In this document: piece after piece, positions 4,970 through 58,462 of the stretch | Layout of the letters: every line of letters begins with the position of its first letter | Numbering within the stretch: the first letter of the stretch is position 1 | DNA from: Chloroflexota bacterium | GTDB taxonomy: Bacteria; Chloroflexota; Dehalococcoidia; Dehalococcoidales; UBA2162 | Direction: 5' to 3' | Length of the DNA: 64,000 nucleotides | Assembly: GCA_043812795.1 (NCBI GenBank) | Contig: JBDRLU010000033.1 | Location: 27,763-91,762, forward strand | The notes under the pieces: generated by a model | What the model saw: only the letters and a program-made list of their open reading frames with translations | Database searches by the model: none | What the model was told of the DNA's origin: nothing | Made by a program: the position numbers and the translations under genes

Positions 4970-6028
4970 ATGCACAGAGTTTTGGTGATAAACCCCGGGT
5001 CAACCAGCACAGAAATTAACCTGTTCGAGGATGAGAGGGAAATAAGGACGGCACGGATGGTGCACCCGGTCGAGGACCTGAGAAAACTCACGAAGATAAT
5101 CGACCAGTTTCCCTACCGGAACGAGATCGTCAAGGCAAAAGTGGCCGAATGGGGGTTGAAGAGAGGCGATTTGGCGGCCGTGGTGGGACGGAGTGGCTTT
5201 CGCCTGAAGGAAAGCGGAGCCTACGGGGTCAATCAGAAGATGGTCGATGATGTGAAGGCCGGTCGGGTGCGGGTAGAGCATGCCTCCGTCCTTGGTGGTT
5301 TGCTGGCGAAAGAAATCGGCGATGCCTATGGTGCGCCCCCTTTCATTGCTCATACCGCGGCTCGTGATTTGGAGCCAATCGCTAAGGTCACAGGTATTCC
5401 TCAAATCGAAAGAAGGCCGGCTTATCATGTGCAGAATATTGTGGCCGTGGCGATACTGGCGGCCGTGACCATGAAAAAAGATATCAAAACGGTAAATTTT
5501 GTCGTTGCTCATCTCGAGGGCGGTATGTCGGTTGCCGCCGTGAGGGGTGGCGAAGTTATCGATGCCACCAGCGCCATGGACGAAGGGCCGTTCACGATGG
5601 AGCGTAGCGGAAACTTACCCGGAGTCTCCCTTATCGAGCTGTGCTTTTCCGGCAAATATACCAGAGAACAGATGTTAAAGCTGATAAGAGGCGAGGGGGG
5701 TATGGTGGCTTACCTGGGAACGAACAAATTCAGCGATGTCGAGGACAGAGTAAATCAGGGCGATGAGAAGGCGAAGTTTTACCTGGAGGCGATGTGCTAC
5801 CAGGCGGCCAAAGACATCGGAGCGATGGCGACCGTGCTAAAGGGTAAGGTTGATGCCGTCATCCTTACCGGTAAGATTCTGGATTCGAAAACTGCGGTCA
5901 ACTGGATAAAAGAGAGAGTTAAGTTTATTGCGCCGGTCGAGACATACCCGGAACAGGAAGCGTTGGTCTTTGTACAGGCGGGACTGAAGGTACTGCGCGG
6001 TGAGGAAAAGGCCAGGAAGTACGAGTAG
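4970..6028 (+). CDS. buk: butyrate kinase
   Basis: MHRVLVINPGSTSTEI..., EHASVLGG, VVAHLEGGMSVAA, ERSGNLP and LRGEEK are colinear with Buk. ATG 4970 follows GGAGGCGG, whereas the longer ORF start at 4904 would overlap ltaE. Confidence 0.8.
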   Translation: MHRVLVINPGSTSTEINLFEDEREIRTARMVHPVEDLRKLTKIIDQFPYRNEIVKAKVAEWGLKRGDLAAVVGRSGFRLKESGAYGVNQKMVDDVKAGRVRVEHASVLGGLLAKEIGDAYGAPPFIAHTAARDLEPIAKVTGIPQIERRPAYHVQNIVAVAILAAVTMKKDIKTVNFVVAHLEGGMSVAAVRGGEVIDATSAMDEGPFTMERSGNLPGVSLIELCFSGKYTREQMLKLIRGEGGMVAYLGTNKFSDVEDRVNQGDEKAKFYLEAMCYQAAKDIGAMATVLKGKVDAVILTGKILDSKTAVNWIKERVKFIAPVETYPEQEALVFVQAGLKVLRGEEKARKYE

Positions 6029-6124
6029 CTGGCGGTCCTAGGCTAAGTGTTATTCTAGTTGTATAAATCCCTTTGATTATTGCAGTATCTCTTTATTTGT
6101 CATTCTGCTACGAAGGATAGAGCA

Positions 6125-6874
6125 ATGGGAAAGATAGTTGCTATCGGTGGAGGACACATTGGAAGCCTGGGTCAACCTATCGAAACTACCGAAATAGATA
6201 AAGAAATAGTCAGACTGAGTGAGAGTAATAGCCCGAGACTGCTCTTTATTCCAACAGCAAGCACTGATGCTGAGTCGTATGTGGAAGCGGTTGACAACCA
6301 TTTCGGAAAAGACCTTGGCTGTATTATTGATACGCTATTTTTGATAAAAGAAAAACCTGGTATCTCGGAAATAAGGGAAAGGGTATTTAATGCGAACATT
6401 ATCTATGTCGGTGGTGGCAATACCCTAAAGATGCTAAGGATATGGCGGGGTCTTGGTGTAGATAATGTCCTTCATGAAGCTTACGGGAGAGGTGTAGTAA
6501 TGTCTGGACTTAGTGCTGGAGCAATATGTTGGTTCAAATACTGTAGCTCCGATTCAAGAAAATTTGCCAATCCAAATGCCGGATTGATTAAGATTACGGG
6601 TTTAAATTTTATCGATGCCTTGTGCTGTCCTCATTACAATACCGAGGCAGACAGAAAACCGCATCTTAAAGCATTAATGAGGAAAACATCGGGAGTCGCA
6701 TTGGCTATCGATGACTGCTGCGCCTTCGAGGTCATGGACGATAAATATAGAGTCATCGGCTCAAAAGAAGATGCCAACGCCTACAAAGTGTATTGGAGAA
6801 AGGGAGAATTCTACGAGGAAATCATCAAGAAACAGACGGGATTTCTAACGTTAAATAGCCTTTTGGCGAAGTGA
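6125..6874 (+). CDS. peptidase S51 family (dipeptidase E-like)
   Basis: YVGGGNTLKML, the nucleophile context SGLSAGAICWF and CCPHY match the S51 Ser-His arrangement. The gene is visibly more AT-rich than its flanks. Confidence 0.7.
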   Translation: MGKIVAIGGGHIGSLGQPIETTEIDKEIVRLSESNSPRLLFIPTASTDAESYVEAVDNHFGKDLGCIIDTLFLIKEKPGISEIRERVFNANIIYVGGGNTLKMLRIWRGLGVDNVLHEAYGRGVVMSGLSAGAICWFKYCSSDSRKFANPNAGLIKITGLNFIDALCCPHYNTEADRKPHLKALMRKTSGVALAIDDCCAFEVMDDKYRVIGSKEDANAYKVYWRKGEFYEEIIKKQTGFLTLNSLLAK

Positions 6875-6889
6875 TATTGGTGGTTGGGA

Positions 6890-7615
6890 CTACCCGAGCA
6901 GACAGAACTTGATATAGCTGGCAACGGCGGTAGCGGCCGTACTGACGCGTAAGACAGTGTCACCCAGAGAAACGGGAATAAAACCGGCACTTTTCGCCAG
7001 TCCGATTTCTTCCTGGGTAAAATCTCCCTCTGGACCAATCAAGACCAGAATACTGGTTGGCTTTACCGAGGCGAGTGCTTCGGTGATATGTTTTCTTTCC
7101 CCATATACTGCCAGGATAAGCTTAAGGTCGTAAACCTGGGACTGTGCCACGACTTTTTCCAGGCTGGTTACGGGTCCGATTAAGGGAATATCATTCCGCT
7201 GGCTCTGCTGGGCTGCACTTTGGGCGATGCGCCGCCAGCGCTCGAGTCTGGCTTCCTTTTTGTTTTCCGGCAGTTTGACGATGACGCGGGCTGTTGCCAG
7301 CGGGATAATGGTATCGACGCCGAGTTGCGTCAGACTATCCACGATTTCGTCCATCCCGGACTTTTTGGGCAGGGCGCAAGCCACCGTGATTTTGACCGGT
7401 TTACTCCCGGAGCTTTTTGTTGCCTTGATGGCGAGCACCGCCCGGGTTTTGTCCATTTCGGAAATCAGACTAACACATTCATTACCATCACCGTCAAAGA
7501 CAGTTACTTCATCATTTACCTTCAAGCGCAGGACGTCTTTCAGGTGATGCAGTTGCTCGGCATCGGAGATAGTGACGTAATCGCGGTCTATCTTCTTGAC
7601 ATAAAATCGGTGCAT
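6890..7615 (-). CDS. rsmE: 16S rRNA (uracil1498-N3)-methyltransferase
   Basis: 241 aa. It has an MHRFYV start, an N-terminal PUA-like region and C-terminal LIGPEGDFTQEE, as in RsmE. Confidence 0.85.
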   Translation of the reverse strand: MHRFYVKKIDRDYVTISDAEQLHHLKDVLRLKVNDEVTVFDGDGNECVSLISEMDKTRAVLAIKATKSSGSKPVKITVACALPKKSGMDEIVDSLTQLGVDTIIPLATARVIVKLPENKKEARLERWRRIAQSAAQQSQRNDIPLIGPVTSLEKVVAQSQVYDLKLILAVYGERKHITEALASVKPTSILVLIGPEGDFTQEEIGLAKSAGFIPVSLGDTVLRVSTAATAVASYIKFCLLG

Positions 7616-22241: not shown

Positions 22242-24095
22242 CTATGGCCGCGCGTGGCTGCTTTCCACCTCGTCGCTGCGGCGGGTGGCATGGATATCCC
22301 TCAGACGCTGGGTCTGGGTCAGTAACTTTTTCCGTAACCGGATGTTGGCCGGCGTTACCTCAACCAGTTCATCTTTGTTGATAAAGTCGATAGCCTGCTC
22401 CAGACTCAGCTTGATGGGTGGCGTCAGCTTGATGGCGATGTCTGAGGTGGACGATCGGACGTTGGTCTTCTTCTTTTCTTTGCAAACGTTGACGGCGATA
22501 TCCTGTGCCCGTGGATTCAACCCGACTATCATGCCTTCATAGACGGCCGTGTTCGGTTCGATGAAGGTGAGGCCGCGGCCCTGGGCATTGTTCAGACCGT
22601 AGGTCACGGCTTTGCCCGGCTCCGAGGCGACCAGCACACCACTGCGGGTCGAAACAATATTCCCCCGCCAGGGCTCATAATCAAGAAAAATGGTATTCAT
22701 GACCCCTTCACCCCGGGTCGCTGTCAGAAAGGCGCTGCGGAAGCCAATAAGCCCTTTGGTGGGCACGTGGAATTCCAGGCGCATGTTACCCTTGCCATCG
22801 TTGCGCATGTTGGTGAGTTGGGCCTGCCGTTTGCCGAGCATTTCGGTTAGAATGCCAATGTTTTCCTCTTTAGTATCGAGGGTGAGGACTTCCACTGGCT
22901 CCATCAGCTTGCCGTCGATTACCTTGGTGATGGCTTCCGGCCTGGAAACTTCAAATTCATAGCCTTCGCGGCGCATGGTCTCAATCAAAATAGCCAGGTG
23001 CAGTTCACCCCGGCCTTTGACCAGGAAAGTATCCGGGCTATCGGTATCCTGGACTCTGAGGCTGAGGTTGGTCTCCAGTTCACGGTAAAGCCGCTCCCGC
23101 AACTGGCGGGTAGTGCTGAAGCGACCCTCACGTCCAGCGAAAGGTGAAGTGTTGACCCCGAAGGTCATCTCGACCGTAGGTTCGCCAATCTGGATACGGG
23201 GTAAGGCTTCGGGACTTTCGGGACTGGCGATAGTGTCGCCAATGCTCACTTTTTCGATGCCAGTTATAGCGGCGATATCGCCTGCCTCAACCTGGGCCAC
23301 CTCTAGGCGCTTCAAGCCGAGATAGGTAAATACGGAATTTACTTCATAATCCGTCGCCGTACCGTCGGCGGTCAGACTGACCACCTGGTCGTGCGCGGTA
23401 ATCTTACCGCGCCAGATACGACCGATGGCGATTCGGCCAATATGGCTGTCATAGTCCAGGTTAGAAACCAGCATCTGTAACGGCCCGTTTTCAGTCTGTG
23501 GGGGTGGTATCTTCTCCAGGATGCATTCGAACAGTGGGGTAATATCCTTGCCTTTGATACTGAGGTCGGTGGTAGCCGTACCTTCCCGGGCGCTGGCGTA
23601 AAGCACCGAGAAGTCAAGCTGGTCGGCACTGGTAGCTAATTCCAGGAAGAGGTCCTGGGTGAGCTGTAATACTTCGGCTATCCGTGCATTTTCGCGGTCT
23701 ATTTTATTGATGACCACGATAATTTTTAAACCTTTTTGCAGGGCCTGACGGAGGACAAATGTGGTCTGGGGCATCGGCCCCTCGACCGAGTCCACCAGCA
23801 GTAAACAGCCATCGGCCATGCTGATGACCCGCTCCACTTCTCCGCTGAAGTCAACGTGCCCTGGAGTATCGATGATATTGATTTTGACTCCCCGGTAAAC
23901 GACGGCAGTATTTTTGGCCATGATAGTAATGCCTTTTTCGCGCTCGAGGGCATTCTGGTCCATTATCAGTTCGCCCACCTGCTGGTTGTCCCGGAAGATT
24001 TTACTTTGCTTGAGCATGGCGTCCACCAGAGTGGTCTTACCATGGTCAACGTGGGCGATGATAGCGATATTTCTAATGTCACTGCGATAATTCAT
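22242..24095 (-). CDS. typA: translational GTPase TypA/BipA
   Basis: 617 aa. [27 protein letters not shown] and NKIDR match the G1-G4 motifs, and the protein is colinear with BipA throughout. Confidence 0.95.
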
Positions 24096-24320
24096 ATTTT
24101 ATCGGTTTTTCCTTTACTCTTTTTTAGAGAAAAGTGATATCCTTTCTTAAAAAACTATTGGACGACCTTTTCTCAATGCCGAGAGCATCGGTCATCCAAT
24201 CTGTCAGGTAAAGCGATAACTTTTATCTGAGACTGCTGAGTGTATTATACATCAATCGCAGGCTGGCAGCAAATAACTTGTGCGTGACCGTTTATAGACA
24301 AGTTGCTATCGGAATAAGGA

Positions 24321-24977
24321 GTGAGTAATAATTTGGGTGTTATCAAAGTGCTGAGCCAAACGCTTATGACAAAGAAAATACTTTCTCCGGCTATTCCTTA
24401 TATCACGGTTAGCGTTGGTCTGTTTGTTTTTCATAATGCCTGGGTGGCGATTCTCAGCTACCACGTGGGGATGTTAATCATGCTCTTCTTGGCCAGACCC
24501 GGAATTACAGTGAAGCAGTTTGTTAAGAGCAATAATTATCCGATTCCGGCTCTGACCGCCGTTGTCGGTGCTGGCGGGGGAGCGCTGCTTTACTTTTTAT
24601 GGCCGTTCTTATTGATACCGAGCGATATCAGTGCTTACACCCAGAGTATTGGCCTGGTAGGGAGAGCGTGGCCATTGTTCCTAGTCTATTATGTTCTGGT
24701 CAACCCGGTACTGGAAGAATACTACTGGCGGGGCTATTTAGGCAGTCAGACCAGGCAAGTGACGTTCAACGATTGGCTCTTCGGCGGATACCATGTAATT
24801 GTCCTGGCCGGTAAAATGGGAATAGTCTGGCTCATCGTTGCCTTCCTGCTGCTATCCTGCGGAGGATGGTTCTGGCGGCAAATGAACCGTCTGAGCCAGG
24901 GACTATTGCCGTCCGTGGTCTCGCATGTTGCCGCCGATATTACCGTTATGCTGACTATCTACCACGCGCTCGGATGA
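24321..24977 (+). CDS. CPBP-family intramembrane glutamic endopeptidase (CAAX protease-like)
   Basis: A multi-TM protein with the EEYYWRGYL motif 1 and later H...H/ HVAAD motifs. The start is uncertain (GTG 24321, TTG 24333 or ATG 24366). Confidence 0.7.
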   Translation: MSNNLGVIKVLSQTLMTKKILSPAIPYITVSVGLFVFHNAWVAILSYHVGMLIMLFLARPGITVKQFVKSNNYPIPALTAVVGAGGGALLYFLWPFLLIPSDISAYTQSIGLVGRAWPLFLVYYVLVNPVLEEYYWRGYLGSQTRQVTFNDWLFGGYHVIVLAGKMGIVWLIVAFLLLSCGGWFWRQMNRLSQGLLPSVVSHVAADITVMLTIYHALG

Positions 24978-45798: not shown

Positions 45799-47679
45799 AT
45801 GGTGATGTCAAAAAGTACGGTGGGTGGTTATGCCGGTAAAATTCTCCGGGTTGACCTGACCAGAGAACGTATCAGCGAAGAAACTCTGGACGAAGCGACT
45901 TTGAGGAAATGGGTCGGTGGGGTCGGGTTCGGGGCGAAGTACCTTTATGAAGAAGTCTCCCCGCGGGTCAAATGGGACAGCCCGGGCAACCGGCTCATCG
46001 TTGCCAGCGGCCCGCTGGGCGGGACAAGGGTAGGTGGCTCGGGGACGATTTCCATCAGTGCTAAAGGCTGTCTGACCAACGGGGCGACCTCGACCCAGGC
46101 CAATGGTTTCATGGGTGCTTACATGAAATTCGCCGGCTATGATGCGGTCATCTTCAAAGGCAAAGCCAAACGGTGGGTCTATCTTTATATGCACGATGGT
46201 ACCGCCGAACTCAGGGATGCCCAGCACCTGGTGGGTAAAAATACCTGGGAGACCGAAGACATGATAAAGGCGGAGTTAGGCTATAACGAGCGAGGGATGA
46301 GCGTTTTCGGTATCGGGCCAGCGGGCGAGAACCTGGTGAAATTTGCCGGTATTTTCGGCGATAAAGACCATGCCGCCGGTCACAACGGCATCGGGGCGGT
46401 GATGGGTGCCAAAAAGCTGAAGGCTTTTTGTGCCGCCCGGGGCCGGGGCAGTGTTCCGGTCAAGGACTCGGGGCAACTGTTGCCGGCGGTTGAAGCTATC
46501 TGGAAAGGACTCGAGAGCGACCCAACGACAAAGGCGGTACTCGACTGGGGTACCGGCGGGACTTACGAAGCCGGGGAACAAAGAGTGACCGCGGGAACGC
46601 TGCCGGTCAAGAACTACCTGACTACTCTTTACCCGGAGGCACGGGTGATGACGTGCCAGTACACCCGGGAACACTGGAATGCCAAACCGAACCCGTGCTG
46701 GGCCTGCCGGTCACACCATTGCCACATGATTACTATTACGGATGGGCCTTACCGGGGGCTGACCGTGGAAGAGCCGGAGTACGAGATGTTTGCTGCCTGG
46801 GGGTCCCTGGTGGGTAATACCGACCCGGCGGAAGCCCTTGTGCTGTCCAATCTGCTCACTTTGCTGGGGCTGGAAGGCAACGAAGCCGGCTTTCTGATGT
46901 CGATGTTGATTGAGCTTTATGAGAAGGGTGTACTTACGAAGAAAGATACCGACGGGCTCGAGTTGACGTGGGGCAACACGGCGGCGATGCGGACGCTGCT
47001 GGAGCGGATAGCCTACCGTGAGGGTGCTTTTGCCAAGCTGCTGGGTGAAGGCACAGTGCGGGCGGCCAAGGCGCTGGGGAAAGAGGCGCAGGACTGCGGA
47101 ATTTATGCCCTGAAAGGCCATTCTCCGCGGGGACATGACCACCGGGGGATGTGGCGGGAAATGTTCGATACGGTTACTTCCGACATCGGCACTTATGAAT
47201 CAGGCTACTGGGGACCGCCCGACCCCGATGTGCCCGGACTGCGGCACCGCTTTGCTCCCGACGAAGTGTCCACACATATCGCCAAGTCGAAAGGGAGACG
47301 TCAGTTCGAGGATGCCCTGGGCACTTGCGTTTTCTGCACGCGGGTGCCTCTCCAGCTGGTAGTGAATGCCTTTAATGCCGTCACCGGTTGGGACTTCACG
47401 CCGAAGGAGGCTCAGGACGTCGGCTTCAGAGCGGCTAATGCGCTGCGTGCGTTCAATATTCGGCACGGTGTTTCGGTAGAGCTGGAACGTCCGTCTCCGC
47501 GCTGGTCGTCGACGCCGGTGGATGGCCCGGCTAAAGGTATCAGTGTCGAGCCGCACTGGGACAGTATGCTGGACAATTACTATTCATTGATGGGCTGGGA
47601 CAGAAAGACAGGAAAACCCTTCCCGGAGACTTTGAAGAGCCTCGGGCTGGAAAATATTGCCGCCGACCTTTGGAAGTAA
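45799..47679 (+). CDS. aldehyde:ferredoxin oxidoreductase family protein (second paralog)
   Basis: 626 aa. GGYAGKILRVDLT at the N-terminus and the overall AOR_N/AOR domain pattern are present. Confidence 0.9.
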   Translation: MVMSKSTVGGYAGKILRVDLTRERISEETLDEATLRKWVGGVGFGAKYLYEEVSPRVKWDSPGNRLIVASGPLGGTRVGGSGTISISAKGCLTNGATSTQANGFMGAYMKFAGYDAVIFKGKAKRWVYLYMHDGTAELRDAQHLVGKNTWETEDMIKAELGYNERGMSVFGIGPAGENLVKFAGIFGDKDHAAGHNGIGAVMGAKKLKAFCAARGRGSVPVKDSGQLLPAVEAIWKGLESDPTTKAVLDWGTGGTYEAGEQRVTAGTLPVKNYLTTLYPEARVMTCQYTREHWNAKPNPCWACRSHHCHMITITDGPYRGLTVEEPEYEMFAAWGSLVGNTDPAEALVLSNLLTLLGLEGNEAGFLMSMLIELYEKGVLTKKDTDGLELTWGNTAAMRTLLERIAYREGAFAKLLGEGTVRAAKALGKEAQDCGIYALKGHSPRGHDHRGMWREMFDTVTSDIGTYESGYWGPPDPDVPGLRHRFAPDEVSTHIAKSKGRRQFEDALGTCVFCTRVPLQLVVNAFNAVTGWDFTPKEAQDVGFRAANALRAFNIRHGVSVELERPSPRWSSTPVDGPAKGISVEPHWDSMLDNYYSLMGWDRKTGKPFPETLKSLGLENIAADLWK

Positions 47680-47714
47680 TGCCATTATTTCCCACGGTCT
47701 GAGGATAGAGAGTA

Positions 47715-48023
47715 TTGAGTACGGGCAAAGTCAGGGTAGAAATCCGCCCCTGGTTGAGCGATGGGCTTAGTCCTAACGGGTCGGGGGCCGTCGTTCTGGA
47801 AGAGCAAATAGAAAAAGGGGCTACGGTCAGTGGCTTGCTTACCCGATTGGCCGCCGAACACAAGGCCCTGGGTAAAGTGTTGTTCGAGCCGGACGGTCGC
47901 CAGCTTAACGGTGAGGTGTGCATCGTAGTCGATGGCCGGCTGTTACAGTTGCCCGGGGAACTGGACAAGGGGCTGAAGGACGGGACGACTATTACGCTGC
48001 TGCCGGTAATCGACGGCGGGTAA
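47715..48023 (+). CDS. MoaD/ThiS-family ubiquitin-like beta-grasp protein with C-terminal Gly-Gly
   Basis: 102 aa ending ...TITLLPVIDGG followed by stop. It lies immediately downstream of the AOR paralog. Confidence 0.7.
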   Translation: MSTGKVRVEIRPWLSDGLSPNGSGAVVLEEQIEKGATVSGLLTRLAAEHKALGKVLFEPDGRQLNGEVCIVVDGRLLQLPGELDKGLKDGTTITLLPVIDGG

Positions 48024-48227: not shown

Positions 48228-49439
48228 TTAGTAAATTATCTTCTCTTCGACCAGCCGGGCTATCTCTTCCTTCGATAGCCCCAGCAACTGGCCGAAGACG
48301 TAATCGTTCTGCTCGCCGAGGAGAGGGGCGTAGCGCGGCGGCTTGCGGCCGAGGCCGCTGGCCTGCCAGGGCAGGTCGTACAGGGTCAGCCCACCGGCGA
48401 TGGGATGGTCCACATTTAAGAAAATGCCGCGTTCTTGAAAATGGGGGTCGAAGAAGACGCCTTCGATATTGAGCACCGGCGCGGCGGCCACGCCTGCTTT
48501 CTGCAATAGTTCAGCGGCCTCGTAGTCCGTGTGGGTGAGTGTCCATTCCGTGACGTGCTTATCGAGTTCATCCAGATTCCCAAGGCGGTGGGATAAGTCG
48601 GAGAATTTCGGGTCGCCGGTCCACGTGGGATTACCGATGGCTGTACAGAAAGCCTGCCATTCGTCTTCGGTCTTGACGGCGATGGAGACCCACTTGTCAT
48701 CGCCTTTACAGCGATAGTTGCCGTGCGGGGCCATGTGGGGCCGTAAATTCCCCTGGCAGCCCGCCACCCGCCCGTTCATGAAATAGTCCATCATGGCCTC
48801 ACCGATAAGCGATGTCGTCACTTCGCTCTGCGAGAGGTCGATATATTGCCCCTGGCCGGTCCGTTCGCGATATCTGAGGGCGGCCATGACGGTAAAGGCG
48901 CCATAAAGGGTCGCCACCACATCGGCATAGGCGTGCTTGAAGCCTAATGGGCGGTCGTCCCGGTAGCCGAGCATACTATCGATACCGGCGAGGGCACTTA
49001 ATAATGGCGCGTAGGCCAGCATTTCGGATAGCGGCCCGTACTGCCCGGCCGGAGACAGCGAGAGCATGATAATATCCGGCTTGATTTTGACCAGAGAGTC
49101 GTAGTCGAGGCCGTGGCGTTTCAAGGTGCCCACGCCGAAGTTTTCATTGACGATATCGCTTTTCCGGATGAGTTCTAAAATAAGCTCGTGTCCTCTGGGC
49201 GTCGTCCAGTCCAGCGTGATGCTCATTTTACTGCGGTTATTGTTGTGGAAGGCAGGATTGACTTCTAGGGTATCGCCCAGTTCAAACACTCTACCGAGGC
49301 GGAGGCCGTCCAGCCTCTTTTTCGATTCAATCTTGATGACTTCGGCACCATGGTCGGCGAGAATATGGCCTAAAACGGTGCCCGCCCACACCCAGCCGAA
49401 ATCGACGACACGGTAGCCTTCGAAAGGTAGCTTCGCCAT
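48228..49439 (-). CDS. family III CoA-transferase (CaiB/BaiF/Frc family), pair 1 subunit B
   Basis: 403 aa. YRVVDFGWVWAGTVLGHILADHGAEVIKIES matches the N-terminal family III signature. Its start overlaps the upstream stop (TAATG). Confidence 0.85.
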   Translation of the reverse strand: MAKLPFEGYRVVDFGWVWAGTVLGHILADHGAEVIKIESKKRLDGLRLGRVFELGDTLEVNPAFHNNNRSKMSITLDWTTPRGHELILELIRKSDIVNENFGVGTLKRHGLDYDSLVKIKPDIIMLSLSPAGQYGPLSEMLAYAPLLSALAGIDSMLGYRDDRPLGFKHAYADVVATLYGAFTVMAALRYRERTGQGQYIDLSQSEVTTSLIGEAMMDYFMNGRVAGCQGNLRPHMAPHGNYRCKGDDKWVSIAVKTEDEWQAFCTAIGNPTWTGDPKFSDLSHRLGNLDELDKHVTEWTLTHTDYEAAELLQKAGVAAAPVLNIEGVFFDPHFQERGIFLNVDHPIAGGLTLYDLPWQASGLGRKPPRYAPLLGEQNDYVFGQLLGLSKEEIARLVEEKIIY

Positions 49440-50653: not shown

Positions 50654-50941
50654 ATCCGGTCTGCCTCCTCTAAGTTAACCGAGGACATTATATACGGTAA
50701 GGCTGGTTCGACTCAATGGGAAGGGTTTTGGTCAGCAGTATATATCTGGACTTTAGCATTATTATGGAGTCTGAATGCCGATGATGCGGCGAAGACACAA
50801 AAAGTTTAGCCTGTTTGACAACCTTAACAAGATGTAAGATTACAAAGTAGGTTGAAAGCCTCTATGATAGTACTAATCTTACACAAAGAAGTTAACTCGA
50901 TGAAGGCCGCCACAAGACCGACTAAAACACTTAGATATATA

Positions 50942-51724
50942 CTAGAGCAAGTTGGACTGTTTCCACCTTCTATCAAAGTTCTCGTTTAATGCTTCGTAAA
51001 TGTTCTTACTACTCGCTTCATCCAACATGATAGCAAATGATTCCTTCGCGCCCAAATCCTTTATACTGTGACCGAGAAGTACTACAGAACTCGGAGAAAT
51101 AATGTATCTATCATGCAAATCAGTGTTAGGATAATTCCCGAAATCGATATTAGGATTTTCTGATTTGAAATCCTTAAGTTCCCTGAGCAACTTAGTTCTT
51201 GCATTCGTGTTTGTAATGTTTTCGATCCTAGTCAAGAATTTGATAGGTCTTCCTTTCACCTCTTTTACAATATCAAGTGTTCTCTCGCTACAATAGGGGT
51301 CTACAATCTTTATCTCACCATCAAGCGTGTTTAAGATGCTATTTGCTAAAATCCTTTTACTTGAATATCTCTGCTCAGGTTCGAAATAGAGTATCTCTAA
51401 CTCGCCCTCTCCTCTGAGAGACTTCAACTGTTCTTTGCCAGGTTTCATTATCTCGTAATAAACCCCGCTACTTTGCAGGTTAGTATAGATTCTGTCACCA
51501 GCTCTATTGAGAGATTGTGTTATGCTCGTTACTTTGATGTTTACCTCTTGTACATCCCGGAGGATAGAAGCTATTTGTTCTGCAGTCAATCTCTTTATTA
51601 ACAATTTGTCTTTAGCAACCCAAAGAATCCATAATGCCCGCTCGAGGATTGTATTACAATCCTCGAGCCGAGGGATGTCGCTAATGTCAGCGGTTAAGAA
51701 TCTCTCCTGGATGGTTAAGGCCAT
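50942..51724 (-). CDS. hypothetical protein: N-terminal winged-helix-like module + C-terminal degenerate PLD/MIT_C-like domain (DPY...LHDRYII...LLGHS)
   Basis: This 260-aa ORF is the last gene of an AT-rich cassette. The C-terminal half reads IKIVDPYCSERTLDIV...FLTRIEN...DLHDRYIISPSSVVLLGHSIKDLG. It resembles a single HxK-like PLD motif with K replaced by R, as in the MITD1 C-terminal PLD-like fold. The assignment is by eye. Confidence 0.5.
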   Translation of the reverse strand: MALTIQERFLTADISDIPRLEDCNTILERALWILWVAKDKLLIKRLTAEQIASILRDVQEVNIKVTSITQSLNRAGDRIYTNLQSSGVYYEIMKPGKEQLKSLRGEGELEILYFEPEQRYSSKRILANSILNTLDGEIKIVDPYCSERTLDIVKEVKGRPIKFLTRIENITNTNARTKLLRELKDFKSENPNIDFGNYPNTDLHDRYIISPSSVVLLGHSIKDLGAKESFAIMLDEASSKNIYEALNENFDRRWKQSNLL

Positions 51725-51730
51725 ATTATT

Positions 51731-52141
51731 TTACTTCTCCACGAATCCGCCTTCTACAAGTTGCTCACCCGTGTTAGTCAGAACCAATGCCTTCGCTTTA
51801 TCCTTTTTCTCTTTATCTTCCATCATGTAACCCTTTTTAATATTGTAAAACACCGCTAGATGTATGTTTTTTGGGAAGGGTTCTTTAGCTGATCTGAAGC
51901 CATTTTCCAAGTCGCTAACATTAAAAGGTGATACCGATTCATGCTTCTCAAGATAGTACCCTATCACCAACGTTTTATGGATTCCGCTTTTAGGTTTCTT
52001 AGACAACAGGAATTCTTTTAGGGACATCTTCTTTGGTGAACTACTCGGCTCAGTTTGAGATTTCGATTCTAATTTACTAATTCTTTTTTCATGGTCTTCC
52101 ATTTGCTTTTTTAATGCGTTGAGCGTATCTTCAACTGACAT
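51731..52141 (-). CDS. hypothetical protein: N-terminal coiled-coil + winged-helix-like module
   Basis: This 136-aa ORF overlaps the upstream gene by 11 nt and lies 6 nt from the downstream gene. Its pattern is TLVIGYYLEKH...FNVSDLENGFRSA...PKNIHLAVFYNIKKGYM...LTNTGEQLVE. Confidence 0.5.
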   Translation of the reverse strand: MSVEDTLNALKKQMEDHEKRISKLESKSQTEPSSSPKKMSLKEFLLSKKPKSGIHKTLVIGYYLEKHESVSPFNVSDLENGFRSAKEPFPKNIHLAVFYNIKKGYMMEDKEKKDKAKALVLTNTGEQLVEGGFVEK

Positions 52142-52571
52142 CCTTCTTGCCCTCCTTGCTCACCTTTTTGAGCATATCTTTGAGTGATTTCTCAACAACA
52201 TTCAAGGCTACCACATGATAACTTAACTTCCCTTTTGTAGTCGTCTTGATCTTATTATCATCTCGAAGGGTTTTTAGCCAAGGCAGCAGAGAACCTTTAG
52301 GAACACCTAATTCATCCATCAATTCACTATTACTCGCATCATCGGTAGGAGTTAATTCAGCTTCTTTAGCATATAACTTGCCAATCAAATAAAGTATGAT
52401 GCATTCCGTACCTGTCAGTTTATCCTTGGGTAGAACGTCAATCTTACCGTCTTTGGTGATTCGAATTAGTTGCTTCGCAAGGTCAAAATTCTTTTCAAGT
52501 GCACTTCCATAATCAACAGTCATCTCTTCAATTATTTTTCGTTTCAAGGTACTAAGAGTTTGATTGGCCAT
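52131..52571 (-). CDS. hypothetical protein with winged-helix-like module
   Basis: This 146-aa ORF is the first gene of the cassette, and GGAAGGTGA precedes the ATG. Its pattern is ECIILYLIGKLY...SNSELMDELGVPKGSLLPWLKTLRDDNKI...KGKLSYHV. Confidence 0.5.
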   Translation of the reverse strand: MANQTLSTLKRKIIEEMTVDYGSALEKNFDLAKQLIRITKDGKIDVLPKDKLTGTECIILYLIGKLYAKEAELTPTDDASNSELMDELGVPKGSLLPWLKTLRDDNKIKTTTKGKLSYHVVALNVVEKSLKDMLKKVSKEGKKDVS

Positions 52572-52608
52572 ATATCACCTTCCAAATATAATAATAATCT
52601 ATATACAA

Positions 52609-52638
52609 GCATAATCCTAATTTAGTATAATGTCAAGG
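52609..52638 (-). promoter_or_regulatory. possible promoter of the three-gene cassette
   Basis: On the minus strand: TTGACA (52638-52633), an 18-nt spacer, then TATGCT (52614-52609). It sits in a very AT-rich 280-nt upstream region. Confidence 0.3.
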
Positions 52639-52850
52639 GCTTTCTGTCTATGTTCGTATTAGTATTTATAATCCAATAATTCTTCGAACCATGCATAGAT
52701 TATTTTTATACTATCTTATTTATGTATGGCAAAAATCAAGGTGTGTGAAAAGCTCTGGCTTCACTAACATCCACTGCTGTGGAGAAATAGAATTTGCTGA
52801 AGTAGCGGAACGGCTGCCGGTATTCTAGCTCACGTACGTCTTACCCGGGG

Positions 52851-53582
52851 TTATTTATAAATCGAAGACATAAAAGTAATATAGTAAATTTCGCCGGACT
52901 TGTAGGTGCCGACAGCGCCATAGGTATTCAGGTCGTTGATAAGCACGTTTTCGTAATCATAAACATTTACTGTCCAGGTTATCAGGGCGGCATTGGCCAC
53001 CTGCTCGACCGTGCCGTAGCGTATCGCCCAGAAAACGTTTTGATAGACGCCACCCAGGCTGGAGTAATGGTATTTCCCCAGGGCCGCCATTTCCTTGCTG
53101 TTCTGGAGGGCCAGCCCGTAAAGGTTTACTCCCCACTGGAGTTCAGGAACACCGGCTTTTCTCCGTTCGGCGTTGATGATGGCGAAGATAGTCTGGTCGA
53201 TTTCATCTTCTTTTAGTGCCGTTGTCCCCGAAATCATGGCATCATATTTACTTTGCAGGTCGGCGAATTTATCATTCAGTTCGCTATATCTGGTATTCAG
53301 GTCGTCGTAGTTAGCCTGGGCAGTCTGGATGGCCGCCGTTTGCGTTTCATATTGTTTTTGCAGGTCTTCATAGCGGGTATTCAAGGCCTGATATTGGGCG
53401 TCGCCAAGATTGGCGGCGTTGAGTTGCGACTGCAGGGCGGCGACCTGTCCTTTGACGGTCTCCAGTTCGGCCTTCACGGCATCGTACTCTTGCTGGGATA
53501 CCCCTGATTTGCAGCCAAGCATCGTCGCCAGAATAACGATTGACAGAAGCGAAAAGAGACTGATTTTTATTTTCCTGGCCAT
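52851..53582 (-). CDS. lipoprotein with coiled-coil region and C-terminal CAP/SCP (YkwD-like) domain
   Basis: The signal peptide plus lipobox is LSIVILATMLGC. A Q/A/L-rich heptad region follows, then INAERRKAGVPELQW...NSKEMAALGKYHYS, typical of CAP domains. Confidence 0.7.
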   Translation of the reverse strand: MARKIKISLFSLLSIVILATMLGCKSGVSQQEYDAVKAELETVKGQVAALQSQLNAANLGDAQYQALNTRYEDLQKQYETQTAAIQTAQANYDDLNTRYSELNDKFADLQSKYDAMISGTTALKEDEIDQTIFAIINAERRKAGVPELQWGVNLYGLALQNSKEMAALGKYHYSSLGGVYQNVFWAIRYGTVEQVANAALITWTVNVYDYENVLINDLNTYGAVGTYKSGEIYYITFMSSIYK

Positions 53583-53741: not shown

Positions 53742-53816
53742 TGGAGCGGGTGATGGGATTCGAACCCACGACGTCTTGCTTGGGAAGCAAGCACTCTACC
53801 GCTGAGTTACACCCGC
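53742..53816 (-). tRNA. tRNA-Gly (anticodon CCC), CCA encoded
   Basis: I folded the cloverleaf by hand. The acceptor stem is GCGGGTG/CACCCGC and the D stem ACTC/GAGT. The anticodon stem CTTGC/GCAAG carries the loop TTCCCAA. The T arm is GTGGG-TTCGAAT-CCCAT, followed by discriminator T and CCA. Confidence 0.9.
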
Positions 53817-53905: not shown

Positions 53906-54736
53906 TTATCCTTTTGGAGCGGCAACCGGGCAGGCGGGAGTAAGACCAGCTTCGGCAATCCGGAGCAGAGAGCTCTTACCGGATTCGGACAGCCCGAAGG
54001 TATCCAGATTCTTCTTGAGGGTATCCAAATCACCAAAGCCGCCGGCGTACCCGTTCAAGCGGGCGATTGCGGTAGAGTCCCGGAAACTTTCAGGCTCCGG
54101 GTAAATTTTGTATAAGGTATCCACCACGTCATGCCTTAGTTTCAAATAATACTTCTGGTGATAGTCCTCGGCCACATAAAAAGCGGTAAAGGGTTCGATG
54201 CCCGTGTAGACGGTCTTGCCCAGCCTTGCCTCTTCTGCCTGTCTGGACTCGATGGCGAGTTTATGCTGTTCTTCATTGGTATAAAAGATAGCCGACCGAT
54301 ATTGTTCCGAATAAGGTTGACTGGTGATATCGTGCCCGCTCCAGAAGGCGGTTAATAATTGCTGGTAAGAGACAACGGACGGGTCGTATTCAACCGCCAC
54401 GGTCTCGCTATGGTCGCCGATGTTGTAGTAAGTGGGCGCCGCCGTCGTGCCTCCGGCATACCCTACCCTGGTGCGGATAACTCCTTCGATACTCCCGAAC
54501 TGGGAGTCGGCACCCCAGAATCAGCCCAGGGCGAAATAAGCCGTCTCCACAGAGTTGTGAGGTACCGTATCCAGCAAAGGCGGCTCCAGCTTTGCCGATG
54601 GAATAGCTGAATAATCGCTGCTATTTATCGAACGCTTACATCCGAACATCGGAAAAACACTCACCAAAGTCAAGAAGACTAAAATCGATAGGCCTATTTT
54701 CCCAGACATGAGTTTGCCAACTACTTTACATATCAT
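53906..54736 (-). CDS. msrA: peptide-methionine (S)-S-oxide reductase MsrA, predicted selenoprotein (in-frame TGA at 54521-54523) with lipoprotein signal and C-terminal extension
   Basis: ORFs 54521-54736 and 53906-54400 are in one frame with a single TGA between them. The read-through is ...ETAYFALG-U-FWGADSQFGSIEGVIRTRVGYAGGTTAAPTYYNIGDHSETVAVEYDP..., and the TGA replaces the Cys of the GCFWG active site. The N-terminus is MSGKIGLSILVFLTLVSVFPMFGC. Confidence 0.7.
54491..54507 (-). promoter_or_regulatory. candidate bacterial SECIS hairpin
   Basis: On the minus strand: ACUCCC-AGUUC-GGGAGU (6-bp stem with GU in the loop), starting 13 nt after the UGA. Confidence 0.45.
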
Positions 54737-57295: not shown

Positions 57296-58462
57296 CTAGT
57301 CCTTTTTGGCTGGTGGCGCCGGATATTTCACCTGACCGCCGGCCCGCGACGGTAAGATAACCGTGGCTGACCCGGGCAGAGTAACCTCGCCCCGCTGGTT
57401 TTGTGCCCAGCATTTAATATCCACCAGGTACTGGTCGCCTTCCTGGTATTTCCGGGCGACTTCACCCATTAACCACGTCGTATCGCCGACAACATTGAAC
57501 CGGCGCAGGTCGCCGCGCAGTTTCTTCAAGAAGCCGTTGTCGCCCATCCAGTTGGTTATCAGGTTAAAAAGCCAGGAAATCCGCTCGCAACCGTAGTCAT
57601 AGGCGCCGGGCAGTCCGATGGTCTGTGCCCGGCTGTCTTCCATGTGTACCAGTTCGGGCACATCGGCCAGGCCGGTCTTGGTATCAATCATATCGCTGCC
57701 GGCATGTCGCTGGAGAAATGACAGGGCTAAGCCGTGGGCCTTCATGAAAGGACTGCCGGCGCCCATCAGCCAGGCATAGATATCACGGCGGCTGAGCGGT
57801 CCTTTAACGACCGGGACTATTTTATCGCCTTCAGCGACATCTTCCCAGTAACGCGGCTTATCACCACGGATTTCTTCAGCACGATAATCGGCGTAAATTT
57901 TCTCGATGTCCTCCGGAGTGTAGGTGGCCGATTCAATATCACTATATTTCCCTTTTTCCTGGCTGGCCTGCCGGCCGGCCCGGACGCACCAGTCCAGGTC
58001 TTTGGCGACGAGTTCTCCCCGCTGGTTGTAATAGAGAATGTCATGGTACTGGATAACGGTCTTGCCAGCCATCTGACTCTGTTTTACCTGCACATCCACC
58101 ATCTCGTTGGAGTAGGTAAAAGTATCGCCTTCCAGTACCGGCTGATAAAATTCCCACTCGTCGCCGGAATGCCAGGCATGAATGCCGGGCATCCCTCTCC
58201 CCTGGGCAGCCCAATAGACGCTATACAGAAAAGCGGGCGGGGCAACCAGACGTCCGTATTTAGTCTTGCGGGCATATTCGGGGTCGGTATAGAGCGGATT
58301 ACCGTCCCCGATACCATCGCAGAAATGCCGGATAGTATCGGCGGTGGCGGCGGTGTTGAAGTAAGGCCGGCGGGGTTTCCAGACGATGCCGATTCTTTCT
58401 TTTAGCTCGGCGATGGCTTCGTCGGTGATTTGCTCATAGATTTTCTGCTTCCGTTCCGTCAT
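57296..58462 (-). CDS. double hotdog-fold (MaoC/FAS1-dehydratase-like) acyl-CoA hydratase/dehydratase
   Basis: 388 aa. The N-terminal half has IRHFCDGIGDGNPLYTDPEYA (N-terminal hotdog of acyl dehydratases), and a second hotdog-like half follows. The call is family-level only. Confidence 0.6.
   Translation of the reverse strand: MTERKQKIYEQITDEAIAELKERIGIVWKPRRPYFNTAATADTIRHFCDGIGDGNPLYTDPEYARKTKYGRLVAPPAFLYSVYWAAQGRGMPGIHAWHSGDEWEFYQPVLEGDTFTYSNEMVDVQVKQSQMAGKTVIQYHDILYYNQRGELVAKDLDWCVRAGRQASQEKGKYSDIESATYTPEDIEKIYADYRAEEIRGDKPRYWEDVAEGDKIVPVVKGPLSRRDIYAWLMGAGSPFMKAHGLALSFLQRHAGSDMIDTKTGLADVPELVHMEDSRAQTIGLPGAYDYGCERISWLFNLITNWMGDNGFLKKLRGDLRRFNVVGDTTWLMGEVARKYQEGDQYLVDIKCWAQNQRGEVTLPGSATVILPSRAGGQVKYPAPPAKKD

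Follow-up and report, generated by a model that had tools for sequence, protein, structure and literature searches.

The AT-rich block at positions 50690-52850 of the window (the whole 64,000-nucleotide stretch of Chloroflexota DNA that was analysed) carries three genes on the minus strand, which encode proteins of 146 aa (A), 136 aa (B) and 260 aa (C). Judged by sequence comparison, this operon recurs as a unit at unrelated chromosomal sites in Bacteria and Archaea. None of the three proteins is a member of a curated family. C is the probable effector of the cassette, and we give an even chance to the reading that the block represents a copy of a self-contained conflict module of three genes, which spreads horizontally and serves either defence or addiction.

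Composition and layout of the block

The GC content of the block is 0.384 (38%), while other 2161-nt windows have a mean of 0.535 (sd 0.024, minimum 0.476), which gives z = -6.3. The tetranucleotide L1 distance within the window lies at z = +15.9. The sharp GC drop that was originally predicted is thus borne out, except that the 60-65% GC ascribed to the flanks is slightly too high, as the CoA-transferase genes measure 56-59%. GC3 is 0.37, 0.42 and 0.44 in the three cassette genes and 0.59-0.74 in the flanking genes. Gene A occupies 52131-52571, gene B 51731-52141 and gene C 50942-51724, all on the minus strand. They are packed exactly as predicted, with an 11-nt overlap between A and B and a 6-nt gap between B and C. 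The three genes are translationally coupled and under purifying selection, with dN/dS values of 0.04-0.64 where dS is estimable.

On the 3' side of C lies an AT-rich non-coding tail (50654-50941, minus strand, ~40% GC), which holds a 10-bp inverted repeat. It has no similarity to any other cassette locus, since similarity ends at the C stop codon, and no ORF or recognisable gene remnant was found in it. A decayed gene, for example that of a methyltransferase (MTase), was considered for this tail and rejected, as no signal was found. On the other side, an AT-rich spacer (52721-52850, minus strand, GC 0.34-0.41) extends from the conserved promoter region to 52851, where the lipoprotein gene upstream of the cassette stops. 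The closest cassette (L008) is similar only as far as 52682.

Spread across Bacteria and Archaea

The same operon is found in unrelated chromosomal contexts in MAGs of ~25 phyla. Fifty GTDB species representatives of ~25 phyla carry it, one of them a complete Freyarchaeota chromosome. Bacterial hosts include Dehalococcoidia, WOR-3, Planctomycetota, Nitrospirota and CPR, and archaeal hosts include Bathyarchaeia, Asgard, DPANN and methanogen lineages. In one Dehalococcoidia MAG the cassette lies between B12 mutase and fatty-acid synthesis genes; on archaeal contigs it directly follows S5-L30 ribosomal genes and adjoins SRP54. A tight chain of at least two small ORFs, usually two, precedes C in 38 of 42 loci, and the GC of the cassette is lower than that of the rest of the locus in nearly every case. 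Two loci, L001 and L011, have a 1,959-bp segment in common with 92% nucleotide identity, sharp limits and unrelated flanks. The C proteins of Thermodesulfovibrionia and Planctomycetota share 85% identity, and across the two domains those of Freyarchaeota or archaeal contigs share 70% with WOR-3. The recurrence in many phyla of both domains, together with the nearly identical segment, supports the original prediction that the block is foreign by composition and a transferable unit.

Vertical co-inheritance was considered for L001 and L009, in which cassette and flank both show ~80% identity, and was rejected. The divergence is a mosaic per gene, with amino-acid identities of 96% in A, 55% in B and 73% in C, so equal averages for cassette and flank are not evidence of co-inheritance. 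B evolves fastest of the three genes.

The 140 neighbours of the cassette in 42 loci contain 199 Pfam families, mostly housekeeping, so that no clear defence-island signal emerges. The commonest family is the N6_N4 DNA methylase (3 members), followed by 12 families with two members each, among them rve, Peptidase_M78, Fic, ResIII, Helicase_C and HNH_3. The PADLOC mad2 profile gives five matches among the neighbours, and these are not the small partner genes. An MTase gene lies directly 3' of C in L011, L012 and L030, and a 63-aa MTase remnant is present in L001. In L001 and L011 the MTase is truncated while A-B-C is intact, and the block in the window has no cognate DNA methyltransferase of a restriction-modification type. 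Searches of IMG/VR viral contigs, PLSDB plasmids and INPHARED phages found no relative of C, and viral structures in BFVD give generic PLD or wHTH matches only.

Insertion site and mobility

The four flanking genes are confirmed as CoA-transferase III genes (Pfam E 1e-84 to 1e-101). As predicted, they form two same-order paralogous pairs, which are distantly related (32% between the genes at 49439 and 56042, 35% between those at 48228 and 54824). The separation of the pairs is however 4.2 kb and not the 2.2 kb of the claimed insertion. Besides the cassette, this gap holds a CAP-domain lipoprotein gene, a tRNA and an MsrA gene, all of host-like composition. The idea that the block splits one pathway cluster is therefore unsupported. 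Neither the flanking proteins nor C had an exact match on record, and a single metagenome scan, for which the lipoprotein was used, yielded nothing closer than a 33% relative. None of the fetched cassette loci shares the flanks of the window. These searches thus gave no cassette-free relative and no empty site for this locus, and we count the lack of an empty site against a conflict module.

The tRNA-Gly(CCC) gene (53742-53816, minus strand) lies where the prediction had placed it, 1.17 kb from the start of A and on the same strand, with the cassette on its 3' side. This position led to the earlier idea of an integrative island which entered at the tRNA gene, later lost its integrase and left the block behind, and a tyrosine recombinase does adjoin the cassette in one distant relative (L046). 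However, the link to the tRNA is not supported. A lipoprotein gene of 732 bp with host-like composition (GC 0.49, GC3 0.60) separates the tRNA from the cassette, and no direct repeat of the tRNA 3' end was found at the far block boundary. A tRNA is present within ~6 kb in only 8 of 43 related loci, of no constant type, side or distance. No other Rfam family is found in the 48-58 kb region. Among the 140 neighbours of the 42 loci, no tyrosine recombinase family of the integron-integrase type occurs twice or more; only the DDE-type families rve and rve_3 reach two members, and none exceeds two. Furthermore, the cassette has the same compact form at every locus and so gives no impression of being left over from a larger island, which leaves the proposed loss of mobilisation machinery unsupported. 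Based on the tRNA position, the missing repeat and the 8/43 count, we rejected this model as very improbable.

A second possibility is that the cassette is a minimal element which mobilises itself, C being a nuclease or recombinase that inserts or homes it and A and B accessory DNA-binding proteins. The cassette does move between genomes with no known integrase or transposase, and the transferred segments have sharp limits. The PLD superfamily contains nucleases (Nuc, NucT) as well as the phosphodiesterase Tdp1, which acts on covalent DNA adducts and resolves them. Nevertheless, we know of no PLD-family transposase. No recombinase domain is found in the three ORFs or in any other gene between the CoA-transferase pairs, and the prediction stands that the block has no integrase, transposase or terminal direct repeat of its own. 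Across the loci, neither terminal inverted or direct repeats nor target-site duplications nor conserved end sequences were found; DNA similarity stops at the gene ends, that is, at the C stop codon and variably 111-192 nt upstream of A. Only one cassette copy lies within the window. One transferred unit carries a fragment of the neighbouring MTase gene, which suggests illegitimate or homologous recombination and not precise transposition. A self-mobilising element is thus improbable, and a conflict module would instead spread by gene transfer and recombination, without a recombinase of its own.

The third possibility concerns the 10-bp inverted repeat in the tail, TGTAAGATTA (50833-50842) and TAATCTTACA (50874-50883), which could be part of an attC site if the block were an integron gene cassette at a secondary site. 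Integrons occur in Bacteria as well as Archaea and mediate transfer between them (PMC9668308). The host range of the cassette overlaps that reported for archaeal integrons, and the sense strand of the tail reads AGTTAAC, 7 nt, TGTAAGATTA, 31 nt, TAATCTTACA, 4 nt, GTTAAGG, loosely like the R''-L''-loop-L'-R' order. However, the predicted fold leaves the R boxes unpaired and is no stabler than shuffles. Candidates with paired R'' and R' occur downstream of C in 3 of 41 loci compared with 10 of 252 control windows, which is no enrichment. In addition, the cassette has its own promoter and three genes, and other genes directly follow other cassettes. The integron reading is therefore rejected as extremely improbable. 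The repeat was also considered as an intrinsic terminator and rejected, since the consensus scan is negative and the AT-rich stem has a 31-nt loop with no T-run after it; its hairpin is no stabler than shuffled sequence (z -0.8 and -1.0). The repeat reported in the original prediction is thus present, but it is neither conserved nor a convincing terminator nor an attC site.

Promoter and candidate operator region

The region ahead of A (52572-52720, minus strand) was analysed by a promoter scan, a hexamer count and an alignment of five cassettes from different contexts. With 25% GC it agrees with the 27% sample of the original prediction, which had also noted an AT-rich upstream region. The scan gives a -35 box TTGACA (52636-52631), a 17-nt spacer and a -10 box TATGCT (52613-52608), and a Shine-Dalgarno sequence GGAAGGTG precedes the ATG of A. 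GATTAT boxes are found on the sense strand at 52599-52594, 52616-52611 and 52673-52668 and on the opposite strand at 52698-52703, that is, four hexamers in 149 nt where 0.27 are expected (P = 0.0002). A 16-nt inverted repeat is also present (52587-52602 and 52695-52710). Invariant in the alignment are ATTATTnGATTAT, TTGAC, the GATTAT at -10 and AGATTATnATTA near +1; upstream of the ATTATTnGATTAT box the cassettes are not conserved. The operon has a sigma-70-type promoter of its own, which conserved GATTAT boxes flank and overlap, and we infer that A, B or C binds this candidate operator region.

The small partner proteins A and B

A is a small winged-helix protein with 644 homologues, every one unnamed. 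Its wHTH spans approximately residues 54-121, its N-terminal 50 residues are conserved, and the mean column identity in the family alignment is 66%. The AF2 model is poor (pLDDT 62) and has a helix-helix-helix-wing topology, for which AspA, MarR and ArsR are the best folds, none significant (E > 0.05). Members of the A family weakly match the wHTH models DUF7343, AbiEi_4 (3 of 30 members), TrmB, PadR and IclR, and other cassettes have different small wHTH proteins in place of A.

B begins with a coiled coil (HEKRIxxLE), followed by a linker and by a globular C-terminal domain that is conserved and possibly a wHTH. It has 332 homologues and no consistent Pfam family, and its PDB matches are limited to a weak one to MarR (E 0.06) and to coiled coils. 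The idea that A, B and the N-terminus of C are paralogues was rejected, as hhalign found nothing.

Fold and motif of C

The AF2 model of C (pLDDT 85) has an N-terminal winged helix (residues ~26-92), a short helix of 10 residues (94-103) and a PLD-fold domain (108-260). C has 571 homologues (531 representatives at 50% clustering), nearly all of 250-280 aa. His204-Asp205-Arg206, Gly218 and Gly225 are invariant, and Asp142, Tyr144, Tyr207, Phe250 and Trp254 are near-invariant. The HDR motif at 204-206 precedes the strand 207-209, and Asp142 comes after the strand 138-141.

The fold is common to C and the HKD nucleases such as Nuc, NucT, DISARM DrmC and Mokosh MkoC, and on visual inspection C shows the motif arrangement H-x-[K/R]...G-x-S-x-[N/K]...E. 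However, C departs from the HxK(x)4D(x)6GSxN signature. The lysine is replaced by Arg206, invariant across 70 diverse family members, the aspartate four residues on is missing, and the last part reads G218-H-S-I-K. The motif of C agrees with that of the HDR-type MIT_C-like PLD domain 'PB-PLD1', a predicted nuclease effector in Menshen NsnC and the BrxL C-termini, with a signature of D/E after beta-2 and HDR before beta-5 (PMC12065111). C shows this signature too, on a PLD fold, with its acidic residue following beta-2 and HDR ahead of beta-5. While MIT_C and PB-PLD1 domains are fused to MIT, inactive-PIN or Lon-like modules, the domain in C is fused to a winged helix, and instead of the ParB-DUF262 and ABC ATPase partners of Menshen it has two small partner proteins. 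To our knowledge, catalysis has been demonstrated for no HDR-type member.

Profile searches with the 70 family members point to defence effectors. By PADLOC, the C-terminal part of PDC-S05 is matched by 70/70 members, NsnC by 13/70 (best E 3e-7), DrmC by 5/70 and MkoC by 2/70; the cassette is not itself a defined PADLOC system. In Pfam (E <= 0.05), PLDc_2 is matched by 6/70 and MIT_C (PF16565) by 4/70 (best E 0.008), while C of the window has no Pfam match. The PDC-S05 match has an E value of 2.9e-12 for C of the window and 2.8e-17 for the best member. PDC-S05, a PADLOC candidate system, consists of one gene whose product starts with a Virulence_RhuM domain, and one cold-seep representative protected E. 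coli ~1000-fold from T7 and T5 (bioRxiv 10.1101/2024.09.26.614923). C lacks the RhuM-type domain, has a winged helix in its place and belongs to a three-gene operon. The likeness is confined to positions 185-302 of the 306 in the PDC-S05 profile, ~120 C-terminal residues, and we count this against a conflict module.

The Foldseek search of the PDB gives a different best match. Over its full length C resembles TrmBL2 (TK0471/PF0496), a TrmB-family chromatin protein of Thermococcales of similar size (~260 aa), with E 4.5e-9, ~275 aligned columns and a TM-score of 0.36-0.39. Nuc (1byr) follows with E 7e-7 and a TM-score on target of 0.69, and MITD1 (4a5z, 2ymb) with E 2-4e-5 and 0.52-0.53. Further matches are FAM83, NucT (6ehi), Tdp1, bacterial PLDs and vaccinia F13. 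That C finds its best structural counterpart over the full length in a chromatin protein or regulator, and not in a nuclease, also counts against a conflict module. TrmBL2 has an N-terminal wHTH, a helix and a PLD-fold C-terminal domain without the sugar-binding subdomain (PMC4877046), a domain order that C resembles, and it binds DNA non-specifically and forms filaments (PMC4877046; PMC3031468).

The cassette could thus be a transferable chromatin or regulatory module, with C as a TrmBL2-like nucleoid protein or global repressor and A and B as co-regulators. The PLD-like domain would then be non-catalytic and serve oligomerisation or ligand sensing, and the module would coat or silence DNA, perhaps AT-rich foreign DNA including its own locus. 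Consistent with this, no other match of C extends over the full length, at least A and C and maybe B are predicted DNA binders, HxR stands in place of HxK, the A-type protein of L021 has a sub-threshold Pfam TrmB match, and the surroundings are mostly housekeeping genes. On the other hand, the TM-score to TrmBL2 is low and sequence similarity is not detectable: TrmB (PF01978) and Regulator_TrmB (PF11495) are unmatched by C and the 70 family members at E <= 0.05, and a PDB profile search with C found no TrmB-family chain. The short helix after the wHTH of C contrasts with the long dimerisation helix of TrmBL2. The HDR and the glycines are invariant and Asp142 is nearly so even among members with 23-50% identity, which suggests strong selection on a pocket, and TrmBL2 differs from C in this HDR/Asp142 pocket. 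The nearest sequence relatives of the PLD domain are defence-system effector domains. Moreover, the gene for TrmBL2 stands alone and is conserved vertically within one archaeal order, while C is always the last gene of a transferred operon, and rampant cross-domain transfer with a fast-evolving middle gene is atypical of chromatin proteins. We regard the chromatin reading as rather unlikely.

Proposed mechanism and its meaning

The conflict module that we propose would act against phages or plasmids, or else as an addiction system of a toxin-antitoxin-like kind. In it, the winged helix of C would place it on DNA, and the PLD-fold domain would cleave a phosphodiester or bind a phosphate-bearing ligand. 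A would be a winged-helix autorepressor acting at the GATTAT boxes, and B a sensor, specificity or neutralising partner restraining C; these roles of A and B are guesses. C may also be a non-catalytic binder, because the HKD lysine is replaced by arginine, mammalian PLD1/2 K-to-R mutants are catalytically dead, and the MIT_C domain of MITD1 is a membrane binder without known catalysis.

The layout of the cassette, with its promoter and candidate operator repeats, resembles that of the tripartite toxin-antitoxin operons (omega-epsilon-zeta) and of AbiE, whose antitoxin AbiEi is a wHTH protein. These are likewise compact and translationally coupled, have their own promoter and operator repeats, begin with a DNA-binding regulator and end with the largest protein, and are scattered in the chromosomes of both domains without mobility genes. 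The difference is that C itself bears a DNA-binding domain. No cassette component significantly matches a known toxin or antitoxin family. That A-B-C is an undescribed minimal immune or addiction system of Bacteria and Archaea, with an HDR-type PLD effector guided by its winged helix, a restraint by a winged-helix repressor and by a coiled-coil protein that is hypervariable, and no mobility gene, is a tentative proposal whose chances fall a little short of even.

If C is catalytic, this would settle whether the HDR-type 'pseudo-PLD' domains of MITD1, the BrxL C-termini and Menshen (PB-PLD1) have enzymatic activity, a question that would be easy to handle in a small soluble system of three proteins. 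If the cassette is a defence system, it would lengthen the short list of archaeal immune systems other than CRISPR and restriction-modification. At 50-85% protein identity across ~25 phyla, this 2-kb operon is an unusually clean case of recent cross-domain gene flow, set in anoxic sediments and groundwater. For the Chloroflexota genome, the AT-rich block is accessory cargo that lies outside the CoA-transferase pathway.

Composition and context of the cassette

The 50690-52850 block has a GC content of 38.4%, compared with a mean of 53.5% (sd 2.4, minimum 47.6) for all other 2161-nt windows (z = -6.3), and its tetranucleotide distance to the remaining sequence gives z = +15.9. The GC dip reported in the original prediction is thus real and extreme within the window. 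Three minus-strand genes occupy the block: A (52131-52571, 146 aa), B (51731-52141, 136 aa) and C (50942-51724, 260 aa). Their tight packing is as originally described, with an 11-nt overlap of A and B and a 6-nt gap from B to C. Their GC3 values are 0.37, 0.42 and 0.44, versus 0.59-0.74 in the neighbouring genes. The AT-rich non-coding tail after C does contain the 10-bp inverted repeat noted before. Weaker GC dips occur elsewhere in the window, at 5700-7000 (0.44), covering a 264-aa ORF at 6080-6874, and at 23500-24500 (0.47).

The four flanking genes encode family III CoA-transferases. They form two pairs of the same gene order, as proposed earlier, and are distant paralogues (32% and 35% identity). 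The cassette lies between these pairs as predicted; however, it does not simply split them. The pairs are 4.2 kb apart, and the gap also holds a gene (52851-53582) whose lipoprotein product combines a coiled coil with a CAP domain, a tRNA-Gly(CCC) gene (53742-53816, on the minus strand like the cassette and the sole tRNA of the window) and an MsrA gene (53906-54736, minus strand). All three are host-like in composition, so the cassette is not alone there. No relative of this locus without the cassette was found in flanking-protein look-ups, a metagenome scan or the fetched loci.

Within its reading frame, the MsrA gene carries a TGA codon (54521-54523) that falls exactly on the catalytic position (ETAYFALG-TGA-FWGADSQFG). 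Its product has a lipoprotein-type signal peptide (…VFPMFGC…) and matches the Pfam 'selenoprotein MsrA helical domain'. The protein is probably secreted, a methionine sulfoxide reductase that contains selenocysteine, and ORF callers would split its gene. Just upstream of the first CoA-transferase pair, at 45799-48023, are ORFs of 626 and 102 aa that, from reading their sequences, resemble an aldehyde:ferredoxin oxidoreductase and a protein of the MoaD/ThiS type. A Pfam-confirmed MaoC-like hydratase gene (57296-58462) is found downstream of the second pair.

Distribution and transfer

None of A, B and C has a Pfam or NCBIfam match above the curated cut-off. In metagenomes, C has 571 homologues, A 644 and B 332, all of them unnamed. 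A scan of GTDB with one genome per species gave 50 loci, every one in a MAG. The bacterial loci belong to Dehalococcoidia, Anaerolineae, WOR-3, Coatesbacteria, Nitrospinota, Nitrospirota, Ignavibacteria, Aminicenantes, Zixibacteria, Planctomycetota, Verrucomicrobiota, Thermodesulfovibrionia and Patescibacteria. The archaeal ones belong to Bathyarchaeia, Freyarchaeota (a complete chromosome), Heimdallarchaeota, Aenigmatarchaeota, Micrarchaeota, Methanomassiliicoccales and Methanosarcinales. The three-gene unit recurs in unrelated places: in a Dehalococcoidia MAG it has a B12-dependent mutase gene on one side and fatty-acid synthesis genes on the other, on archaeal contigs it lies directly 3' of the ribosomal S5-L30 genes, and on another archaeal contig it is found between SRP54 and a NUDIX gene. 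At 38 of 42 loci C comes last, after a tightly packed series of at least two small ORFs; usually there are two, each about 110-190 aa long. Loci that lack an A or B like that of the window have other small proteins of like style instead, among them one with the 'HEKRIxxLE' coiled coil and another whose winged helix matches the TrmB type below threshold.

Some copies show further variation. Extra small-gene pairs adjoin the cassette in a Heimdallarchaeota locus (L037, 2470-3460), where the genes are of A/B-like size and the second has a B-type coiled-coil start, and in a Chloroflexota locus (L011, 1674-2711; 150 and 136 aa), where the likeness to A and B is by size only. This suggests duplication or exchange of partner genes. 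In the closest relative of the window cassette (L008, 146-700), tblastn recovers only residues 51-146 of A, although DNA similarity runs on through its 5' part; A may be frameshifted there, or the assembly may be in error.

In nearly all loci the cassette is AT-richer than the remainder (for example, GC of 0.38 versus 0.54, 0.28 versus 0.50 and 0.56 versus 0.63). A Dehalococcoidia locus (L001) and L011, from another Chloroflexota MAG, have a 1,959-bp segment in common (92% identity); their flanks are unrelated. The identity of C reaches 85% between a Thermodesulfovibrionia and a Planctomycetota MAG, 77% between Acidiferrales and Verrucomicrobiota, and about 70% between WOR-3 and the Freyarchaeota chromosome or archaeal contigs. 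Several of the copies in Dehalococcoidia show no more than 46-55% identity to that of the window. The block is a foreign, self-contained operon that has spread across domains. Its genes are under purifying selection (dN/dS 0.04-0.64, where dS is estimable). L001 and a second Chloroflexota copy, L009, are 96% identical in A, 55% in B and 73% in C; from this mosaic divergence, alleles recombine and B is the fastest-evolving gene.

Mode of mobility

DNA similarity between copies ends at the C stop codon and 111-192 nt upstream of A, and no terminal repeats common to the compared copies were found. In one subfamily the transferred unit takes in the 5' 190 nt of a DNA methyltransferase gene, which looks like recombination and not precise transposition. 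Such a gene (DPPF or SPPY motif) lies directly 3' of C in some cassettes (L001, 8793-8984; L011, 5186-5545; L012, 3670-5190; L030, 7065-7841). Truncation leaves 63 aa of it in L001 and 119 aa in L011, both with an intact A-B-C, so the methylase is dispensable.

The tRNA linkage of the original prediction does not hold for the family. Only 8 of 43 loci have a tRNA gene at a distance of up to about 6 kb, and neither its type nor its side is constant; a decayed tRNA island is unlikely. An integron cassette, suggested by a loose attC likeness of the tail, is also unlikely: the fold is no more stable than those of shuffled sequences, and attC-like candidates are not enriched after C at other loci. 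The 140 nearest neighbour genes match 199 Pfam families. Among these N6_N4 DNA methylase is the commonest (3), and those found twice include rve, Peptidase_M78, Fic, ResIII, Helicase_C, HNH_3, Clp protease, CbiA and PDZ; the remaining neighbours are housekeeping genes. No relatives of C were found in IMG/VR, PLSDB or INPHARED. Self-mobilisation by C is unlikely.

A tyrosine recombinase gene (L046, 3804-4895) stands directly upstream of a distant copy in Micrarchaeota, the sole case among 42 loci. Two copies of a 28-nt repeat, TATCCCCnGCAGTAGTGGGTGTCAATG, lie upstream of the cassette region in L009 (511-538 and 1157-1184, bracketing a reverse-strand ORF) and one lies downstream of it in L011 (5433-5460); the repeat is absent from the window. 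Both loci also have a hairpin, GGGACAGC…GCTGTCCC, just upstream of the cassette, which in L009 directly follows the second repeat copy.

Predicted proteins and function

The model of C (pLDDT 85) consists of a winged helix (about 26-92), a short helix and an alpha/beta domain (108-260). Foldseek matches the latter to the PLD-fold proteins Nuc (7e-7), FAM83, NucT and MITD1 (2e-5) in the PDB. Among 70 family representatives (23-50% identity), G96, H204, D205, R206, G218 and G225 are invariant and D142, Y144, Y207, F250 and W254 nearly so. The PLD motif of C is thus of the HDR and not the HKD type. Exactly this MIT_C-like signature, with HDR ahead of beta-5 and an acidic residue following beta-2, is described in the 2025 Menshen analysis for 'PB-PLD1', the predicted nuclease effector domain of NsnC, which is reported there at BrxL C-termini too (PMC12065111). 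The profile matches of the C family are consistent with such a signature: all 70 representatives match the C-terminal part of PADLOC PDC-S05, 13 match NsnC, five DrmC and two MkoC, while Pfam PLDc_2 and MIT_C match six and four. In E. coli, one representative of PDC-S05 that has a RhuM domain gave about 1000-fold protection from T7 and T5 (bioRxiv 10.1101/2024.09.26.614923).

Gene C of the window also contains a perfect 29-nt palindrome, GCTCGAGGATTGTAATACAATCCTCGAGC (51640-51668), with 14-nt arms and two XhoI sites, encoding LEDCNTILE. Its length is far beyond chance expectation, and no perfect palindrome with arms of at least 10 nt is found at the equivalent position in other cassette copies.

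A is predicted to be a winged-helix protein. Its model is weak (pLDDT 62) with a clear topology; the best folds are AspA, MarR and ArsR, with non-significant E-values, and family members weakly match several wHTH models, AbiEi among them. In B, a coiled coil at the N-terminus is followed by a conserved C-terminal domain. DNA binding is predicted for at least two of the three products, A and C, and C, encoded last, has an HDR-type PLD domain.

Upstream of A is a sigma-70-type promoter (TTGACA, 17-nt spacer, TATGCT). Three elements are invariant in an alignment of five cassettes from different contexts: a ATTATTnGATTAT box 5' of the -35 element, a GATTAT that overlaps the -10 and, near the transcription start, AGATTATnATTA. 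GATTAT occurs four times in the 149-nt promoter region of the window (0.27 expected, P = 0.0002), and two of these hexamers are inside a 16-nt inverted repeat bracketing the promoter. This region is a plausible candidate operator for one of the winged-helix proteins.

We see about an even chance that the cassette is a conflict module, either for defence or for addiction, in which C would be an effector directed to DNA, A an autorepressor and B a fast-evolving sensor or neutraliser. The main rival, which we find rather improbable, sees the cassette as a transferable module of TrmBL2 type that serves in chromatin or regulation and whose PLD domain is non-catalytic. It is favoured by the arginine in place of the HKD lysine in C, by the mostly housekeeping neighbours and by the archaeal chromatin protein TrmBL2 being the top PDB match of C (E 4.5e-9) and the sole full-length one. 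The family itself is uncharacterised; A-B-C represents a new operon around an already known effector-type domain.
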